A stretch of DNA of 64,000 bases, taken from contig JBAZBD010000001.1 of assembly GCA_041671645.1 (NCBI GenBank), positions 412,890-476,889 of the forward strand, in the 5' to 3' direction. A program made the position numbers and the translations under genes. Of the stretch, positions 7,085 through 46,086 are shown piece after piece. Under the pieces are notes generated by a model. It was not told the origin of the DNA, searched no databases, and saw nothing but the letters and a program-made list of their open reading frames with translations. How positions within the stretch are numbered: the first letter of the stretch is position 1; each line of letters opens with the position of its first letter. This DNA is from Patescibacteria group bacterium (GTDB lineage Bacteria > Patescibacteriota > UBA1384 > XYA2-FULL-43-10 > 1-14-0-10-43-13).

Positions 7085-7154
7085 ACTAATATTTTAGCTG
7101 TAAACAGAAATATTATCAAACAAAAATATACTCATCCATGACGAGTATATTTTT

Positions 7155-7229
7155 GGTCAGGGAGGCGGGACTTGAACCCGCGGCCTCCGGACCCCCAGCC
7201 CGGCGCGCTACCAACTGCGCTACACCCTG
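7155..7229 (-). tRNA. tRNA-Pro (anticodon GGG)
   Basis: Cloverleaf read on the minus strand: acceptor CAGGGTG/CTCCCTG (one mismatch), D arm GCGC-AGTTGGTA-GCGC, anticodon stem CCGGG/TCCGG with loop CTGGGGG, T arm GCGGG-TTCAAGT-CCCGC, encoded CCA. Confidence 0.75.
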
Positions 7230-7745: not shown

Positions 7746-7915
7746 AAAATCACCTGCTCGTATCCGGCTGGTGATTATTCGCTATATTCTCTAGTAGTCC
7801 AAAATCACTTGCCGGAATGGGTAAGTAGTAGGACTAGTAGGTTTTGTGCGAATGTGATCATTGAGATGAATTTACGCTTTTCCGATAAAAAAGTCAAGAA
7901 ATAAAAAATGGCCGA

Positions 7916-8266
7916 CTATTCTTGGTCGGCCATGGGTTCTGGGGTCAAGAGTATTTCCGTATAAGTAAGACCGAAGTCTTGCTGCGGGATCATTTCCCAG
8001 GCGTTGTTCTTTTCTTCCAATCTGAAGCCCAGAATTGCGCCATAGGCACCGCATGTCGGCCAAAATTGGCCGATCGCCAGATAGTTCTCTGACGAGCCCA
8101 CAATATGGAAATCTCTGGAGCAGCCGCCCTGGGTGAAGACGCCCTCACCAAAGACGCGGTTTTCGATCAGTCGTATTTTACCCTTGTATTCGAAGGTTGG
8201 CGGGCTCTGGAAGGGAAGTAACGGTTTTCCCAGAGCTGAGATATGAAAGGAAAATTCGGTGGTCAT
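7916..8266 (-). CDS. Hypothetical protein
   Basis: 116-aa ORF; no recognisable motif. Confidence 0.3.
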   Translation of the reverse strand: MTTEFSFHISALGKPLLPFQSPPTFEYKGKIRLIENRVFGEGVFTQGGCSRDFHIVGSSENYLAIGQFWPTCGAYGAILGFRLEEKNNAWEMIPQQDFGLTYTEILLTPEPMADQE

Positions 8267-15249: not shown

Positions 15250-15274
15250 TTTTGCTTAGTTTTTAGGCGAATAT

Positions 15275-15321
15275 CAAACACCTTATATATGTGCCTGCCC
15301 GCCTCTGGAGGGAGGTGTTTG
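15275..15321. repeat. Degenerate member of the AAACACCT...AGGTGTTT palindrome family
   Basis: CAAACACCT-(29 nt)-AGGTGTTTG; the outer arms are identical to the perfect palindromes at 22836 and 46285. Confidence 0.4.
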
Positions 15322-43278: not shown

Positions 43279-44021
43279 AAGTATTGATTATAATTTTCCT
43301 GGGGTTAGCTCTTTTTCTCCTATTGCGTCATTATCCTGACGCTAAAGAGGTCAAGTTTTCACTGTCAAAAATTGATTTTTCTAGATTCCAGAAGCTTTTG
43401 ACCAATCGTAGACCTCACAAGATCGATAGCATTATTGCCGCGCCGATGCAGAGAAACATGACAGCCGTAGAGTCAGAAGATGATAACTTCGCGCCTCAGC
43501 CAAAAATTGCCAAAGTTTTCAGCGAGAAGAGCCCTATGCTCTTGTCTCACCTCTACAAAGCCGAGGAAGCATATGAGGCTAATGATTTACGCGAGGCCGA
43601 AGTCCAAGCGCTCGAAGCGATCGCTAAAGACAATCGTTGCGCAGAAGCTTATGTCATGATCGGCAAAATCGCTTTCTTTCGTGGAGAATTTGCTGATTCA
43701 AGAGAAGCTTATAAAGCGGCTCTGAAATGCAACAAGAATTTGGCCGAAGCCTATTTTGGTACTGGTATGGTAGAAATGCGAGAGGACAACTTCACCAAGG
43801 CGATTGATCATATGGAGAAGGCTATCAATCTCGAGAAGGGGAACGCTGAGTGGTATTTCGAACTTGGCAAGAGCTATATCGAGATCAGACAGTACGCCAA
43901 AGCAGCAAAGGTTTTGAAGAAGGCGGCTAGCATCGATATCGATAACAAGGACTACAAATCTCTTGCCGCCGAAGCCGAAGAAAAACAGAGAACGCATTCG
44001 GTCTACTCACGATTACGCTAG
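43272..44021 (+). CDS. TPR-repeat protein with an N-terminal TM
   Basis: Three to four TPR units (AEAYVMIGKIAFFRGEF..., AEAYFGTGMV..., AEWYFELGKSY...). Confidence 0.6.
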   Translation: MLEVLIIIFLGLALFLLLRHYPDAKEVKFSLSKIDFSRFQKLLTNRRPHKIDSIIAAPMQRNMTAVESEDDNFAPQPKIAKVFSEKSPMLLSHLYKAEEAYEANDLREAEVQALEAIAKDNRCAEAYVMIGKIAFFRGEFADSREAYKAALKCNKNLAEAYFGTGMVEMREDNFTKAIDHMEKAINLEKGNAEWYFELGKSYIEIRQYAKAAKVLKKAASIDIDNKDYKSLAAEAEEKQRTHSVYSRLR

Positions 44022-44076
44022 GATTGAACAAACCAGTAGAAAATGGTATATTCTTTGTGTTAATTTTGCCGTTGTA

Positions 44077-44116
44077 CCTGCCTGCCGGTAGGCAGGGCTC
44101 AGTTGGTAGAGCAACT
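44077..44116 (+). pseudogene. tRNA fragment: hairpin + 20-nt copy of the tRNA-Thr(GGT) D-arm region
   Basis: CCTGCC-tgccggta-GGCAGG followed by GCTCAGTTGGTAGAGCAACT, identical to residues 10-29 of the tRNA-Thr 28 nt downstream. No complete cloverleaf can be drawn. Confidence 0.35.
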
Positions 44117-44143
44117 TTAATGAATTGATACTATTTGTCGGGT

Positions 44144-44219
44144 GCCGATGTAGCTCAGTTGGTAGAGCAACTCCATGGTAAGGAGTAGGTCACCGGTTCA
44201 ATTCCGGTCATCGGCTCCA
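44144..44219 (+). tRNA. tRNA-Thr (anticodon GGT)
   Basis: Acceptor GCCGATG/CATCGGC, D arm GCTC-AGTTGGTA-GAGC, anticodon stem ACTCC/GGAGT with loop ATGGTAA, T arm ACCGG-TTCAATT-CCGGT, CCA. Confidence 0.75.
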
Positions 44220-44240
44220 GACAAATAGTGGCATTAGTAA

Positions 44241-44329
44241 GCCCCGACGCCCAGGGAAACTGGGATCGGGGTCCCGATCAAAACATCGGGAGAGTAGGTC
44301 GCCCCGACAAGTCGGGGTCAACGGCTCCA
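44241..44329 (+). other. Cluster of three GC-rich hairpins after tRNA-Thr (structured RNA or terminator cluster), ending in a tRNA-3'-end-like TCAACGGCTCCA
   Basis: CCCCGA-cg-CCCAG-GGAAA-CTGGG-a-TCGGGG; TCCCGAT-caaaac-ATCGGGA; CCCCGA-caag-TCGGGG. The last 12 nt mimic the tRNA-Thr acceptor 3' end (CATCGGCTCCA). Confidence 0.3.
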
Positions 44330-44435
44330 TAAAAATATCAATAATCGAATATCATTGATCAAGTGATTGAATAATTCCTGAAAATAGGTTACAATAACTT
44401 GTGATTTGGTACTTGAAACTTGGTATTTTTTTGTT

Positions 44436-44520
44436 GCTGGGATAGCAAAGTGGTCAACTGCATCTGACTGTAAATCAGACGGCATCGCCTTCGTAGGTTC
44501 GAATCCTGCTCCCAGCACCA
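44436..44520 (+). tRNA. tRNA-Tyr (anticodon GTA), type II with a long variable arm
   Basis: Acceptor GCTGGGA/TCCCAGC, anticodon stem TCTGA/TCAGA with loop CTGTAAA, variable-arm hairpin GGC-atc-GCC, T arm GTAGG-TTCGAAT-CCTGC, CCA. Confidence 0.75.
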
Positions 44521-44574
44521 CGCTTAGCGTGGTGAAAGGGACGCCTAGCGTCCCACCTTCATCGCCTGAGCGAT
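44516..44574 (+). other. Three consecutive short hairpins between tRNA-Tyr and tRNA-Thr
   Basis: CACCACGC-tta-GCGTGGTG (uses the tRNA CCA end), GGGACGC-cta-GCGTCCC, ATCGC-ctga-GCGAT. Confidence 0.3.
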
Positions 44575-44576
44575 TC

Positions 44577-44651
44577 GCCAGCTTAGCTCAACGGTAGAGC
44601 AACTGTTTTGTAAACAGTAGGTTATGGGTTCAAATCCCTTAGCTGGCTCCA
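44577..44651 (+). tRNA. tRNA-Thr (anticodon TGT)
   Basis: Acceptor GCCAGCT/AGCTGGC, D arm GCTC-AACGGTA-GAGC, anticodon stem ACTGT/ACAGT with loop TTTGTAA, T arm ATGGG-TTCAAAT-CCCTT (one mismatch), CCA. Confidence 0.7.
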
Positions 44652-44692
44652 TTAAAAAATTAATCAGATATTTATTTCCGAAAGAAATCACT

Positions 44693-44860
44693 ATGGCAAA
44701 AGAAGCTAGAAAACTAGTCACACTTGAATGCGAGAAATGCAAATCTCGTGGTTACCACACAGACAAGAGATTGAAGGGTCAGGACGTTATCAAACGTATT
44801 GAATTGACCAAGTATTGCAAGGTCTGCAAGGTTCGCACATTGCACAAAGAAACAAAATAA
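44693..44860 (+). CDS. rpmG: 50S ribosomal protein L33
   Basis: MAKEARKLVTLECEKCKSRGYHTDKRLKGQDVIKRIELTKYCKVCKVRTLHKETK (55 aa); four-Cys zinc ribbon typical of L33. Confidence 0.8.
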   Translation: MAKEARKLVTLECEKCKSRGYHTDKRLKGQDVIKRIELTKYCKVCKVRTLHKETK

Positions 44861-44941
44861 GTTTGAGCTGGTAAGCAATAAGCCAGTAAGCGTCTAAGTT
44901 TTTACTTAATTCTTACTGCTTAAAAGCTTATTAGCTTCAAT

Positions 44942-45015
44942 AGGGGTATAGTTAAATGGTATAACGAAGGTCTCCAAAACCTTTATTAGGGGTTCGATTC
45001 CTCTTACCCCTGCCA
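44942..45015 (+). tRNA. tRNA-Trp (anticodon CCA)
   Basis: Acceptor AGGGGTA/TACCCCT, anticodon stem AAGGT/ACCTT with loop CTCCAAA, T arm AGGGG-TTCGATT-CCTCT, CCA. Confidence 0.75.
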
Positions 45016-45019
45016 AAAA

Positions 45020-45053
45020 ATATCCAGTCTAGTACTGGATATTTTTTGTTTTG
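45020..45053 (+). terminator. Intrinsic terminator after the tRNA/rpmG cluster
   Basis: ATATCCAGT-ctagt-ACTGGATAT followed by TTTTTTGTTTTG. Confidence 0.6.
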
Positions 45054-45141
45054 TTAAAAGAGAAATCGAGCTAAAGGGGGGTGTGAATTGGGGGTCCATC
45101 GTCAGAAAGGACAGGGAACCGATGGCGTTTTGATATAGAAG

Positions 45142-46086
45142 TTAGAGCCGAGAATCATTGGATTCAATTGTCACAGCAACATAGTCTGACCCTGTTACTC
45201 TTTGATCGCCAGCAAACGGACCGTCATCAGGCACAATGTAACACCCACGTTCTTTTTGGGAACTAGATAAATCCCTAGCTTTTACGCAATATGACATAGA
45301 GAAAGCAAGCCCATTTATGTTTCCGCTTGAGATTACATTTCTTATCGATGATACTGATTTGGTCTTGTCTTCTGCCAACCATGTACCAATTCTTTTGACT
45401 GGTTCGTTTTGTCCAGTCCTTTGACATGGAGCACGTTCGGCCAGATGCTTTTTGACATGACCCCTGCCGATCAGAATAATCATCTTGGCAGGATCGGCCT
45501 CTTTTATGATTGAATACATAGTTTCATCTCGTCTATTTTGGTAGTCTGCATCATTTGTCTCTTGGTTCTCAGCATCTATGCAAACAACTTTAATGCCGAT
45601 TAATTTGGCAGCGATAATTAATTTGATATTATTGTCATCCCAGCTAAATGGCATGATTTTTTTTAATTGTCCAAAAATATTTTCATTTGTAAAATCCAAA
45701 GAATCCAACATTTCTTGTCGATGAAAATCTGCTTCAACTGCAAGATGCGTCACCCCTTGGTCTTTCAGCATTCCCAGGCTTTTTATGAGTGATAGCCTCA
45801 TTTCTTTACACTCACTTAGGTGGCTCTCTCCAATTAGCGTAAAATCATTTTGAGAGGCTATTTGTATTATCGCATCGCTAAAAGGCACAGAATTATTTTC
45901 AAAATACTCCAACGTTTCATTTAGCAGCTTTTTTTCTGCAATATTTGCGTCATCTTGCACAGCATCATCAGGCACCCCTAGATTGGAATCCGCCATTCTT
46001 GTTTTATCTGGGATGTCTGTCATGCCCATGTCTCCTTTTGTCATTTTGCCACATCCGCTCGAATCTTCATTCATCTTATCTCCCAA
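45142..46086 (-). CDS. Hypothetical protein, possibly of the Tiki/TraB/ChaN/erythromycin-esterase superfamily
   Basis: 314 aa; GESH (FTLIGESHLSE) and GRGH (ILIGRGHVKK) blocks in the order of the GxxH motifs of that superfamily; ~60-aa acidic low-complexity N-terminus. Confidence 0.35.
   Translation of the reverse strand: MGDKMNEDSSGCGKMTKGDMGMTDIPDKTRMADSNLGVPDDAVQDDANIAEKKLLNETLEYFENNSVPFSDAIIQIASQNDFTLIGESHLSECKEMRLSLIKSLGMLKDQGVTHLAVEADFHRQEMLDSLDFTNENIFGQLKKIMPFSWDDNNIKLIIAAKLIGIKVVCIDAENQETNDADYQNRRDETMYSIIKEADPAKMIILIGRGHVKKHLAERAPCQRTGQNEPVKRIGTWLAEDKTKSVSSIRNVISSGNINGLAFSMSYCVKARDLSSSQKERGCYIVPDDGPFAGDQRVTGSDYVAVTIESNDSRL

Follow-up and report, generated by a model that had tools for sequence, protein, structure and literature searches.

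The stretch at 44068-44329 is probably a nested tRNA locus, in which a resident tRNA-Thr(GGT) gene has been split by insertions and encloses a replacement copy, the insertions being palindromic elements which prefer tRNA genes. The locus lies in the 64,000-nucleotide (64-kb) stretch of DNA that was analysed as a whole, called the window here, and all features described below are on its forward (+) strand. The resident gene, or outer copy, carries four insertions: one after position 9, one in the anticodon loop, one between positions 39 and 40, and one in the place of the T-arm. The outer copy in the window is a decaying pseudogene, without a T-loop, with an AGT anticodon and with a mutated 5' strand of the anticodon stem. 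All of the sequences compared come from metagenome assemblies.

The inner tRNA-Thr(GGT), at 44144-44219, is intact, with the allele GCCGATG/CATCGGC and an encoded CCA. ARAGORN calls it Thr(GGT), it scores 72.2 bits against RF00005 in Rfam (gathering score 29), and it is the only Thr(GGT) gene which the two programs detected in the window. It sits within the outer anticodon loop as part of a 116-nt cassette of leader, tRNA and trailer; 76 nt of this are tRNA, only about 40 nt are not, and the insert holds no ORF. The leader (44119-44143) consists of AATGAATTGAT, a stem arm ACTATTTGTC (44130-44139) and a 4-nt linker, GGGT, ending in U(-1), and the point at which the outer anticodon loop gives way to it can be placed only to within a few bases. 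The trailer (44220-44234) starts directly after the CCA with the other stem arm, GACAAATAGT (44220-44229), followed by GGCAT, and the two arms form a 10-bp stem which brackets the tRNA. U(-1) and the 4-nt single-stranded linker recur in most cassettes. Rfam found tRNAs only, whether in the window at gathering thresholds, in the locus at E <=5 or in six related loci at E <=1, and the group I intron core RF00028 had no match in 43950-45150 at E <=5 or in the six related loci at E <=1. A YrlA-like match of 18.7 bits (gathering score 69) was set aside as noise from the D-arm copy.

The outer copy was detected by neither ARAGORN nor Rfam, and was traced by our own alignment of the tRNA-Thr consensus with the inner gene masked; over-fitted rows of this alignment (L006, L009, L001 and L008) were disregarded, as was the row for the window's outer T-arm, which was borrowed from tRNA-Tyr. 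Positions 1-9 are the acceptor 5' strand GCCGTTG and TA (44068-44076). GCCGTTG (44068-44074), immediately 5' of the first hairpin, pairs with CAACGGC (44319-44325), which together with TCCA makes up the acceptor 3' strand at 44319-44329, CAACGGCTCCA, a near copy of the tRNA 3' end. Positions 10-31 (44097-44118) comprise the D-arm GCTCAGTTGGTAGAGC, A26 and the anticodon-stem 5' strand, which reads ACTTT as opposed to ACTCC in the live alleles. An exact 20-nt repeat, GCTCAGTTGGTAGAGCAACT, is found at 44097-44116 in this part and at 44153-44172 in the inner tRNA. Beyond the cassette lies an anticodon-loop remnant, TAGTAAG (44235-44241, about positions 33-39), with anticodon AGT and not GGT. Positions 40-48 follow at 44292-44300 as GAGT, which is the rest of the anticodon-stem 3' strand, and the variable loop AGGTC. 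Joined, the last two pieces read TAGTAAG followed by GAGTAGGTC, as they also do in the related locus L017, against TGGTAAGGAGTAGGTC in the live gene. If the outer exons were joined precisely, the joints would be GCCGTTGTA followed by GCTCAG, and ..AAG followed by GAGT...

Insertion 1, between outer positions 9 and 10, is a 20-nt palindromic hairpin at 44077-44096 with the arms CCTGCCTGCC and GGTAGGCAGG, together CCTGCCTGCCGGTAGGCAGG. An identical hairpin occurs in the outermost 5' fragment of L097, and a perfect-palindrome version, CCTGCCTGCCGGCAGGCAGG, occurs at other sites of L024, L030 and L098, away from detected tRNA genes. At 39/40 there are two hairpins in a row: hpA (44242-44271), nested and GC-rich, which reads CCCCGA CG CCCAG GGAAA CTGGG A TCGGGG, and hpB (44272-44291), which reads TCCCGAT CAAAAC ATCGGGA. 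L017 has a homolog of hpA at the same site with its outermost pair changed from C-G to U-A, compensated, and a homolog of hpB with loop differences only. The T-arm is replaced by the hairpin GCCCCGA CAAG TCGGGGT (44301-44318), and the same replacement is seen in the 3' fragment of L009. The pattern CCCCGA..TCGGGG has two matches in the 64 kb, both in this locus, against 0.03 expected, which rules out a repeat dispersed over the window, and the locus hairpins in general have essentially no other occurrence there.

The acceptor pairing, the 3' piece with its anticodon-loop remnant, anticodon-stem 3' strand and variable loop, and the bracketing 10-bp stem were all missed in the sequence-only reading, and they indicate that the fragments are the two halves of one second tRNA-Thr wrapped around the real one. 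The 276 nt at 44060-44335 fold as nested halves at -122.9 kcal/mol, with a z of -6.5 against shuffles. The outer copy cannot be a working tRNA because its T-loop is gone and its T-arm has been replaced by a hairpin; taking the insertions out leaves it without a T-loop, with AGT as its anticodon and with ACTTT in place of ACTCC.

Several claims of the sequence-only reading stand as made: a hairpin (44077-44096) and an exact 20-nt D-arm copy (44097-44116) lie 5' of tRNA-Thr(GGT), and three GC-rich hairpins (44242-44271, 44272-44291 and 44301-44318) lie 3' of it, followed by the near copy of the tRNA 3' end at 44319-44329. Its tRNA calls (Thr-GGT, Tyr, Thr-TGT and Trp) and rpmG are correct, and secE and nusG are absent 3' of tRNA-Trp, as they are in relatives. 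It also suggested remnants of recombination or integration, which is right in that these are halves of a resident gene split by foreign DNA; loose decorations and integrase att scars are both rejected, since the halves do not overlap and together rebuild one gene enclosing a replacement tRNA. The proposed structured ncRNA of about 90 nt at 44241-44329 found no support: the covariance search found no Rfam family there at E <=5, and the stretch resolves into the two palindromic insertions at 39/40 and the 3' remainder of the outer tRNA.

The same locus was compared in 16 relatives, sampled via a neighbouring protein. About half have nests or fragments and the others are clean, so the nest structures are dispensable. 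The thought that the fragments might be non-conserved spacer in orthologous loci therefore finds partial agreement in the clean half, but the architecture recurs, and in L017 the sequences recur too, so the nest is not random spacer. L017, another Berkelbacteria-like genome, has a homologous nest at the same locus, and it aligns with the window's over 171 columns without gaps and with 14 differences. Six of these form 3 compensatory pairs and 8 are unpaired, and 0 of 51 pairs are broken. The L017 leader is homologous to that of the window, with a compensated T>C change. By a rough estimate, the chance of all 8 single non-tRNA changes falling in unpaired columns is about 5e-4, from (37/95)^8. 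The non-tRNA parts of the module differ at 12 of 95 columns and are much better kept than the flanking intergenic DNA. The inner and outer alleles are reciprocally swapped in L017.

Comparison with two other relatives identifies the outer copy as the resident ortholog. Of the relatives whose intergenic DNA can be aligned, L013 is the closest, and its single clean gene has the outer copy's allele; L016, whose flanks are shared with L017 up to the gene ends, has a plain gene where L017 has its outer copy. The allele GCCGTTG/CAACGGC is that of the sole clean tRNA-Thr(GGT) in both L013 and L008. The outer acceptor pairing, GCCGTTG/CAACGGC as opposed to GCCGATG/CATCGGC in the inner tRNA, had been considered as a sign of selection, and this was dropped because the same allele is simply the live gene of the relatives. 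Some loci are one-sided, L008 with a 5' fragment only and L009 with a 3' fragment only. In relatives, free-standing GIY-YIG and PD-(D/E)XK nuclease genes are found in this gene cluster.

Metagenome loci were collected with a pattern that is independent of the junctions and specified only two D-arms too close together. All of them (10/10) are nests of tRNA-Thr(GGT) in tRNA-Thr(GGT). Nesting of this kind is shared with related CPR bacteria that have not been cultivated. Deleting the insert restores a perfect tRNA in L101 and in L099/L103, and the outer copies of L017 and L098 have 21/21 stem pairs once their four insertions are removed. Cognate nests were also found for tRNA-Thr(TGT) (L027, L106) and tRNA-Trp (L001, L016), and nesting is three deep at some loci. 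The top of the census held no tRNA from non-CPR control loci; it was ranked by raw scores, z-scores being inflated where many neighbouring tRNAs had been masked (L094). Inner and outer copies are nearly always different alleles. Outer copies are decaying in the window, L027 (T stem), L104 (2-nt deletion) and L006.

Every cassette has complementary leader and trailer arms, such as ACTATTTGTC/GACAAATAGT, CCTGCCCGCC/GGCAGGCGGG, GCCTTCCACCAAA/TTTGGTGTGAAGGC and CCCCGCACCTTT/AAAGGTGCGGGG, which are terminal inverted repeats of the MITE type and differ in sequence by family. In L101 and L104 the cargo of one leader/trailer family is Thr(GGT), and in L027 the cargo of the same family is Thr(TGT). Some hairpins have no cargo but the same two ends as tRNA cassettes; examples are the one at 12/13 of L098 and the empty hairpin of L096, which retains GCCCAT..GGGC. 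The hairpin families TCCCGAC..GTCGGGA, CCTGCCYGCC..GGYRGGCAGG and TCCGCC..GGCGGA occur in many loci, and the accessory hairpins vary between loci in number, place and sequence. Related palindromes at several sites, filled and empty relatives, and compensated stems are what is expected of a mobile GC-rich palindromic cluster. Different sequences have repeatedly hit the outer positions 10/11, 12/13, 30/31, 33-35, 39/40 and 55/56, and about 20 junctions compared showed neither a target-site duplication nor a common sequence or conserved tetranucleotide. A candidate cassette motif in L009, L028 and L030, GGGGCAACTCTCC, turned out to be outer tRNA positions 24-30 between two insertions. A phage origin was considered and rejected: two cassette patterns had no matches in viral contigs, and the three phage sequences matched by a generic pattern of two close D-arms are unrelated, being 5' fragments within tRNA arrays and what is probably an intron.

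A promoter-like site at 44024-44052, TTGAAC-N17-TATATT with a TG before the -10 hexamer, lies 15 nt 5' of the first outer base, and is presumably the promoter of a single transcript which covers the inner tRNA and both outer halves. A comparable site lies directly 5' of the clean gene in L013 and L016, and of the outer gene in L017. A second promoter-like site, TTGAAT-N17-TACAAT at 44367-44395, lies 5' of tRNA-Tyr and is kept in sequence in L013. Between the intact tRNA-Tyr(GTA) (44436-44520) and the intact tRNA-Thr(TGT) (44577-44651) there is a fifth hairpin insertion, a GC-rich spacer of 56 nt at 44521-44576, where L013 has 'ttt' alone. Three short hairpins had been described in it; the three palindromes are present, but the RNA folds best as one long imperfect hairpin (44521-44572, -33.7 kcal/mol, z -6.4). 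No second copy of its palindrome, GGGACGC..GCGTCCC, was found in the window or the fetched loci. By Pfam, the neighbouring genes encode a TPR protein, L33, a weakly ChaN-like protein, a methyltransferase and ArsR, and a Pfam scan of the neighbouring ORFs found no transposase, recombinase, integrase or homing endonuclease in or adjoining the locus. An exact look-up of the window's L33 protein returned no match.

The inner tRNA would be transcribed from the resident promoter within a precursor of about 270 nt, and freed by RNase P and 3' processing at the leader/trailer stem; the 4-nt linker ending in U(-1), and the trailer stem which starts right after the CCA, point to this kind of processing. 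A role of the stems in processing is possible. The hairpins and cassettes may be small, palindromic, non-autonomous insertion elements which spread from one CPR genome to another with a preference for tRNA genes as landing sites, some of them bringing a rescue tRNA. A bare hairpin in a live single-copy tRNA gene would be removed by selection, which may be why bare hairpins are seen only in dead copies and spacers, and a hairpin with a cognate tRNA at its apex would be able to colonise a live gene. Repeated rounds would lead to nests three deep, the outer copy would decay after insertion, and later recombination or deletion could leave isolated 5' or 3' fragments. Selection or homology-guided spread would explain why the cargo tRNA is cognate in every case.

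With neither a target duplication nor a common junction sequence, the insertions fit no well-characterised transposition chemistry. Tentatively, the elements could form a new class of protein-less, tRNA-gene-specific mobile element of CPR, in which the cognate tRNA at the apex both rescues the host gene and directs the element by homology or structure; base-precise insertion without target duplication would then point to single-stranded DNA or an RNA intermediate. Nested tRNA genes would result from one invasion after another by such elements, which would also make tRNA alleles turn over rapidly, and bare hairpins would be members of the class that have collapsed or have no cargo. Several outer copies are perfect despite up to four insertions, which requires either that insertion is very fast relative to point mutation or that there is some constraint on the outer copy, and these perfect interrupted copies are the main point in favour of an intron-like reading.

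Such a reading, a new type of intron whose removal everywhere and ligation of the outer exons would make the outer tRNA functional too, as in the multi-intron tRNAs of Thermoproteales, is unlikely. It would account for precise insertions with no bases lost or duplicated, for the perfect tRNA that deletion gives in L101, L099, L098 and L017, for differing sequences at the same positions (10/11, 12/13, 30/31, 33-35, 39/40 and 55/56) and for stems kept through compensatory changes, and Patescibacteria tRNA-Thr(GGU) is a known host of introns near this site (PMC13011429). But the window's outer copy, which lacks a T-loop and has an AGT anticodon and a mutated anticodon stem, would be non-functional even if spliced, and decay is seen in other outer copies too (the T stem of L027, the 2-nt deletion of L104, and L006). 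An intact cognate tRNA lies inside every interrupted gene, as rescue predicts and as a harmless intron would not need; Rfam gives no group I or II signal; and the junctions, as read from the sequences, face one another across the foot of an unbroken helix and not within a bulge-helix-bulge. Also unlikely is that there is no dedicated element, and that tRNA alleles are replaced by homologous or homology-facilitated illegitimate recombination, with the tRNA core as anchor and the hairpins arising from palindrome-preserving replication errors. Illegitimate joints are expected to be sloppy, and many nests are base-exact (L101, L099, L097). The hairpin and leader/trailer families span distant contigs and cargo tRNAs, as de novo palindromes would not, and the same 20-nt palindrome is found away from detected tRNA genes. 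On the side of recombination are the nearly always different inner and outer alleles, the one-sided arrangements (L008 5' only, L009 3' only), and the GIY-YIG and PD-(D/E)XK nucleases in the relatives' cluster, which could make breaks; the tRNA halves of an existing nest could also act as homology arms for transfer.

If the outer halves and hairpins were instead a functional scaffold, that is, a structured precursor or stable ncRNA controlling the processing, stability or expression of the inner tRNA, one would understand the fold of the 276-nt region (far better than shuffles, z -6.5), the stems maintained between window and L017 with no pair broken, the better conservation of the non-tRNA module parts (12 differences in 95 columns) than of the flanks, and the U(-1) and 4-nt linker recurrent in most cassettes. 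We consider this quite unlikely, given a plain gene in about half of the relatives, the sister genomes L013 and L016 included, accessory hairpins that differ from locus to locus in number, place and sequence, and no Rfam match. tRNA genes are classic integration sites, with crossover points in the anticodon loop and T-loop, and the tRNA-Tyr and tRNA-Trp 3' ends of L023 and L100, duplicated from the T-loop on, resemble serial att scars. That the nest is an attL/attR-type scar of an integrase-borne element, later almost wholly deleted, is nevertheless very improbable: integration duplicates the crossover segment, and the outer halves of the window, L017, L101, L099 and L097 have no overlap. The intact gene also has a 5' half on one side and a 3' half on the other and is not terminal, the insert is small at about 116 nt, no integrase gene is nearby, and junction positions vary widely. 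Least credible is an artefact of metagenome assembly, such as strain variants of one tRNA gene stitched together. All data are short-read metagenome assemblies, in which tRNA genes are repeats for the assembler, but the same architecture is found in independent NCBI MAG and JGI metagenome assemblies, on contigs which include some of 46 to 671 kb, the leader and trailer sequences are unique and belong to neither tRNA allele, and L098/L102 and L099/L103 show the same structure in independent samples.

tRNA genes rank with the most conserved parts of a genome and with those that tolerate least, yet here they have been interrupted repeatedly, with base-level precision, by DNA that brings a replacement tRNA. 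If the reading as nested genes invaded by palindromic elements is true, selfish DNA has a new means of settling in an essential gene of which there is one copy, and reduced CPR genomes have a new route of tRNA allele turnover and horizontal transfer. If insertion uses single-stranded DNA or RNA, an enzyme activity so far undescribed in these organisms may be at work. In annotation, tRNA finders miss the outer halves and hairpins, and a nest may be mistaken for pseudo-tRNA debris, introns or ncRNAs. The cassettes resemble natural self-contained tRNA expression modules, with a leader/trailer stem, a 4-nt linker and U at -1. No description of nested tRNA genes, or of palindromes or hairpins in Patescibacteria tRNA genes, was found in the literature searched.

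REP/BIME and IS200/IS605-derived palindromes are extragenic GC-rich hairpins, often paired, which are mobilised in trans by single-strand-specific Y1 transposases without target duplication. The elements described here are likewise GC-rich hairpins, often paired and inserted without target duplication, but their targets are tRNA genes, and REP elements are not known to have tRNA cargo. The tRNA fragments left by integrative elements are similar in that partial copies adjoin an intact tRNA gene and the incoming DNA restores the disrupted function. Unlike attL/attR fragments, the nests have no duplicated crossover segment, no integrase and an insert of about 100 to 170 nt, and what the insert supplies is an entire tRNA and not just the 3' portion that was displaced.

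The multi-intron, split and permuted tRNA genes of archaea (Thermoproteales, Nanoarchaeum), with their bulge-helix-bulge introns, have up to four interruptions per gene at non-canonical positions, and related intervening sequences at different positions have been read as intron transposition. The number of interruptions per gene and their non-canonical positions are alike here, whereas the hosts are bacteria, an intact cognate tRNA is always enclosed, and outer copies decay. The bulge-helix-bulge geometry of two 3-nt bulges and a 4-bp helix was not found at the junctions as read from the window, L017 and metagenome sequences (such introns are cited as ref 18 in PMC13011429). Group I introns interrupt the anticodon loops of bacterial tRNAs, with divergent ones in Patescibacteria tRNA-Thr(GGU), and are precise and patchy (PMC13011429). 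They share with the cassette the anticodon-loop site, the tRNA species, the phylum, the precision and the patchiness. The cassette differs in having no group I core, in being a 116-nt insert with a 76-nt tRNA inside a degenerate host copy, and in being accompanied by further insertions in the D region, anticodon stem and T-arm.

Mobile GC-rich palindromic clusters are known from AT-rich organelle genomes: in yeast mitochondria, in Neurospora, where they flank mitochondrial tRNA genes, as double hairpins in Allomyces, and in Volvox (PMC4478555, with Yin et al. 1981 and Paquin et al. 2000 as cited there; PMC2670323). The hairpins described here resemble them in being short palindromes, perfect or nearly so, which are GC-rich within a genome of lower GC and often stand as tandem double hairpins; they are patchy in close relatives, keep the hairpin while changes concentrate in the loops, merge and nest, encode no protein, and are associated with tRNA genes as in Neurospora. 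Unlike the organelle clusters, they are in a free-living-type bacterial (CPR) chromosome, lie inside tRNA genes and not beside them, and have no AG target duplication; the cargo of some units is a full-length tRNA, and these units nest in the gene cognate to it, of which we found no report for the organelle clusters. In the same group of organisms, CPR rRNA genes contain short (<200 bp) ORF-less insertions, along with intervening sequences excised by RNase III; the insertions show no intron signature, are found at the tip or foot of stem-loops, concentrate at recurrent sites and are scattered over the host phylogeny (PMC11270868). Both are short ORF-less inserts in stem-loops of structural RNA genes. 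However, rRNA tolerates excision without ligation and tRNA does not, which may be why a replacement tRNA rides along.

At the tRNA-Thr(GGT) locus of the window one tRNA gene is nested within another. The locus is not mere debris: it was probably assembled by palindromic insertion elements, and one of these brought in a replacement tRNA. ARAGORN and Rfam agree on tRNA-Thr(GGT) at 44144-44219, tRNA-Tyr at 44436-44520, tRNA-Thr(TGT) at 44577-44651 and tRNA-Trp at 44942-45015, with rpmG at 44693-44860. The sequence-only reading had described pseudo-tRNA fragments and GC-rich hairpins among these genes, and all of its features are present on direct reading of the region. The 20-nt D-arm repeat occurs as exact copies at 44097-44116 and 44153-44172, TCAACGGCTCCA nearly duplicates the acceptor 3' end, and the GC-rich hairpins are confirmed, with the CCCCGA..TCGGGG arms confined to the locus (2 matches vs 0.03 expected in 64 kb). 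The Tyr/Thr(TGT) spacer, described earlier as three short hairpins, folds best as one long hairpin.

The fragments belong to a second, interrupted tRNA-Thr(GGT), the outer copy (44068-44329), which surrounds the intact inner gene. Its 5' end, GCCGTTG-TA, lies at 44068-44076, immediately 5' of the first hairpin, and GCCGTTG pairs with CAACGGC (44319-44325) as the outer acceptor stem. The downstream outer piece contains GAGT-AGGTC, which is the remaining 3' strand of the anticodon stem plus the variable loop. When the two hairpins inserted between outer positions 39 and 40 (hpA, 44242-44271, and hpB, 44272-44291) are removed, this piece reads TAGTAAG followed by GAGTAGGTC, the anticodon loop and stem. 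The inner tRNA is bracketed by a 10-bp stem, ACTATTTGTC/GACAAATAGT, formed by the leader and trailer of its cassette, and the window's 20-nt hairpin corresponds to a leader arm fused directly to a trailer arm. In the minimum-energy fold of 44060-44335 (-122.9 kcal/mol, z -6.5) both the outer acceptor stem and the bracket stem form, as do the inner cloverleaf and every hairpin.

Homologues of the window's L33 come from Candidatus Berkelbacteria or Patescibacteria. Orthologous loci were collected via L33 and, separately, via the PSP1 protein encoded nearby, in genomes of GTDB species, a sampling unbiased toward the tRNA cluster. They conserve the gene order holB, PSP1, TPR, tRNAs, rpmG, tRNA-Trp. 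The relative whose intergenic DNA can still be aligned to the window (L013) has a single clean tRNA-Thr(GGT) with the GCCGTTG/CAACGGC allele of the window's outer copy, and its Tyr/Thr(TGT) spacer is 'ttt' only. Two other relatives, L016 and L017, share flanks right to the gene ends, with a plain gene in L016 at the site of the L017 outer copy. Because of this allele match, these shared flanks and a promoter-like TTGAAC-N17-TATATT (44024-44052) shortly upstream of its 5' end, the outer copy is the resident orthologous gene, and the inner tRNA and hairpins are insertions.

The nest in L017 (5604-5929) is homologous to that of the window, sharing the cassette leader, bracket stem, trailer and 39/40 hairpin pair; it differs in its D-region hairpins and in a hairpin inserted in the T-loop. 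Without its four insertions the L017 outer tRNA has 21/21 stem pairs, and its anticodon is AGT, the same as in the window's outer copy. Between the bracket stem and the outer variable loop, both included, the alignment of the two loci is gapless, spanning 171 columns with 14 differences: three pairs are changed on both sides with pairing kept, eight changes fall in unpaired columns, and 0/51 predicted pairs are broken. The chance that all eight single changes would miss the 58 paired columns is roughly estimated at ~5e-4, over 95 non-tRNA columns. This non-tRNA part of the module has 12 differences in its 95 columns, while flanking intergenic DNA is conserved far less, and the module is absent from the sister genome L016; these two facts suggest that the module spread horizontally. 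Between the two nests the acceptor alleles are reciprocally swapped, TTG outer and ATG inner in the window and the opposite in L017 (A5:U68 vs U5:A68), for which successive invasions or selection against precursor mispairing are possibilities.

The nest is one instance of a feature that recurs in CPR genomes. A metagenome collection was scanned for two tRNA D-arms too close for neighbouring genes, a pattern that specifies no cassette or hairpin, and all ten of the ten loci found were tRNA-Thr(GGT) within tRNA-Thr(GGT). The insert lies inside the anticodon in L101 and at 30/31 in L099 and L103, and its deletion gives a flawless tRNA in each. The outer copy of L098 has 21/21 pairs despite four insertions (12/13, 30/31 with the tRNA, 39/40 and 55/56), L096 and L097 show three levels of nesting, and a further nest family is common to L030 (Berkelbacteria RIFOXYA2_FULL_43_10), L028 and L009. 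A census scored with a purpose-written script found that cargo is likewise cognate in tRNA-Thr(TGT) nests (L027 5566-5753, L106 195-460) and tRNA-Trp nests (L001 4280-4530, L016 5200-5420), with no tRNA from the non-CPR control loci among the top scores. About half of the 16 PSP1-sampled relatives have nests or one-sided fragments, and the others are clean. By L33, L106 comes from the window's closest relative (91% identity). In the tRNA-Trp(CCA) nests the insert has a leader/trailer stem and interrupts the anticodon loop at ~34/35; the window's own tRNA-Trp is clean and is the same allele as the L001 outer Trp.

Leader and trailer arms are complementary in every cassette, and their sequences vary by family. 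The trailer arm begins at, or just past, the inner tRNA 3' end, and in most cassettes a single-stranded linker of ~4 nt, usually with a terminal U, precedes the inner tRNA. One family of arms is found with either Thr tRNA: with Thr(GGT) in L101 and L104, and with Thr(TGT) in L027, whose arms are nearly identical to those of the other two; a related family (CCCGCCTGCG-type, as in Thr cassettes) carries Trp in L016. Cargo-less hairpins and tRNA cassettes have both ends in common: the 12/13 hairpin of L098 has the ends of the cassette at that locus, and in L096 an 'empty' hairpin retains the acceptor-stem ends GCCCAT..GGGC. The perfect-palindrome form of the window's 20-nt hairpin is found in L024, L030 and L098, away from detected tRNA genes. 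Insertion sites also lie outside tRNA loops, and the junctions compared had no target duplication and no common sequence.

Insertions that are base-exact, in outer copies several of which are still perfect, could be read as intron-like, with the outer copy alive. The arguments against this are stronger. An intact cognate tRNA lies within every interrupted gene, Rfam gave no intron-family match at the locus or at related loci, and the junction geometry is unlike bulge-helix-bulge. The outer copies also decay: that of the window has lost its T-loop and has an AGT anticodon and ACTTT instead of ACTCC, the T stem of L027 is broken, L104 has a 2-nt deletion and L006 is heavily eroded. We conclude that the outer copies are pseudogenes of varying age, and therefore that insertion is rapid compared with point mutation.

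Outer and inner copies would be co-transcribed from the resident promoter, with RNase P and 3' processing acting at the leader/trailer stem to free the inner tRNA. The hairpin families are probably mobile with a preference for tRNA genes; in live genes, presumably only insertions bringing a cognate tRNA survive, and one-sided fragments (L008, L009) may be the product of later recombination. No enzyme gene that could drive insertion was found at the window locus. Relatives have free-standing nuclease-like genes between the tRNA genes of the cluster, GIY-YIG and PD-(D/E)XK (PDDEXK_5), and a third type, a 198-aa ORF that matches HTH_23 only weakly (L002 3111-3392; L009 957-1331; L010 767-1018; L011 496-747; L001 3215-3811; L021). 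None of these is in the window; they could introduce the breaks through which alleles are replaced.

Other palindromes and repeats were seen along the way. An intergenic hairpin at window 15268-15320 (AAACACCT...AGGTGTTT) surrounds CCTGCCCGCCTCTGGAGGG, and its motif CCTGCCCGCCTCTGGNGGG recurs in L098 at ~8634; it has no Rfam match and may be a CCTGCC palindrome family member or a small RNA. A 9-bp GC-rich palindrome at 7908-7933 (ATGGCCGAC TATTCTTG GTCGGCCAT), ~680 nt from tRNA-Pro(GGG) (7154-7229), has a CCGAC/GTCGG core in common with the tRNA-fragment hairpins. The short palindrome GGATTCCCGCCTGCGCGGGAATGACA is dispersed outside the tRNA cluster in several Berkelbacteria-like contigs (L001 7937-7990; L019 2810; L022 67). 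In L023 (5856-6160 and 6541-6700) and L100 (reverse strand, 3' of tRNA-Tyr), one or two further 3' ends, duplicated from the T-loop onward, lie behind tRNA-Tyr and tRNA-Trp, and a conserved ~100-nt module (GGAGGCGCGACTG.GCGC.GAG.CGGGGTCGA ... GTGACC) precedes each; the arrangement suggests an element of another kind, possibly serial att-like scars. Tandem structured units of ~70 nt (CGTAAAA..TTTTACGTG..CACGTGGCAC..), unrelated to the window hairpins, lie 3' of each tRNA in the L002/L105 relative (L002 2878-3080, 3470-3580, 3658-3950; L105 900-1900). After their CCA end, several tRNAs have another repeat, TTCGAcTC ... TCGAATGACCCTGAG..TGTCGAAGGGCC (L001 2843-2990; L009 1417-1530 and 1617-1650). 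In phage contigs L093 (2073-2120, reverse strand) and L094 (4557-4612), 5' tRNA fragments lie immediately ahead of other tRNA genes in arrays, and in L093 one tRNA-like 5' half precedes a structured stretch of ~250 nt that may be an intron; both kinds of case are unrelated to the CPR cassettes.

Searches of the literature turned up no account of nested tRNA genes, nor of palindromes within CPR tRNA genes. The nearest known systems are the GC-rich palindromic clusters that are mobile in organelle genomes (PMC4478555, PMC2670323), short insertions lacking ORFs in the rRNA genes of CPR bacteria (PMC11270868) and group I introns of Patescibacteria tRNAs, Thr(GGU) among them (PMC13011429), together with the multi-intron tRNAs of archaea and integrase att scars. 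The elements are classed with selfish palindromic insertions, an already-known kind, and there is a substantial chance that they are a new class of tRNA-targeting element.
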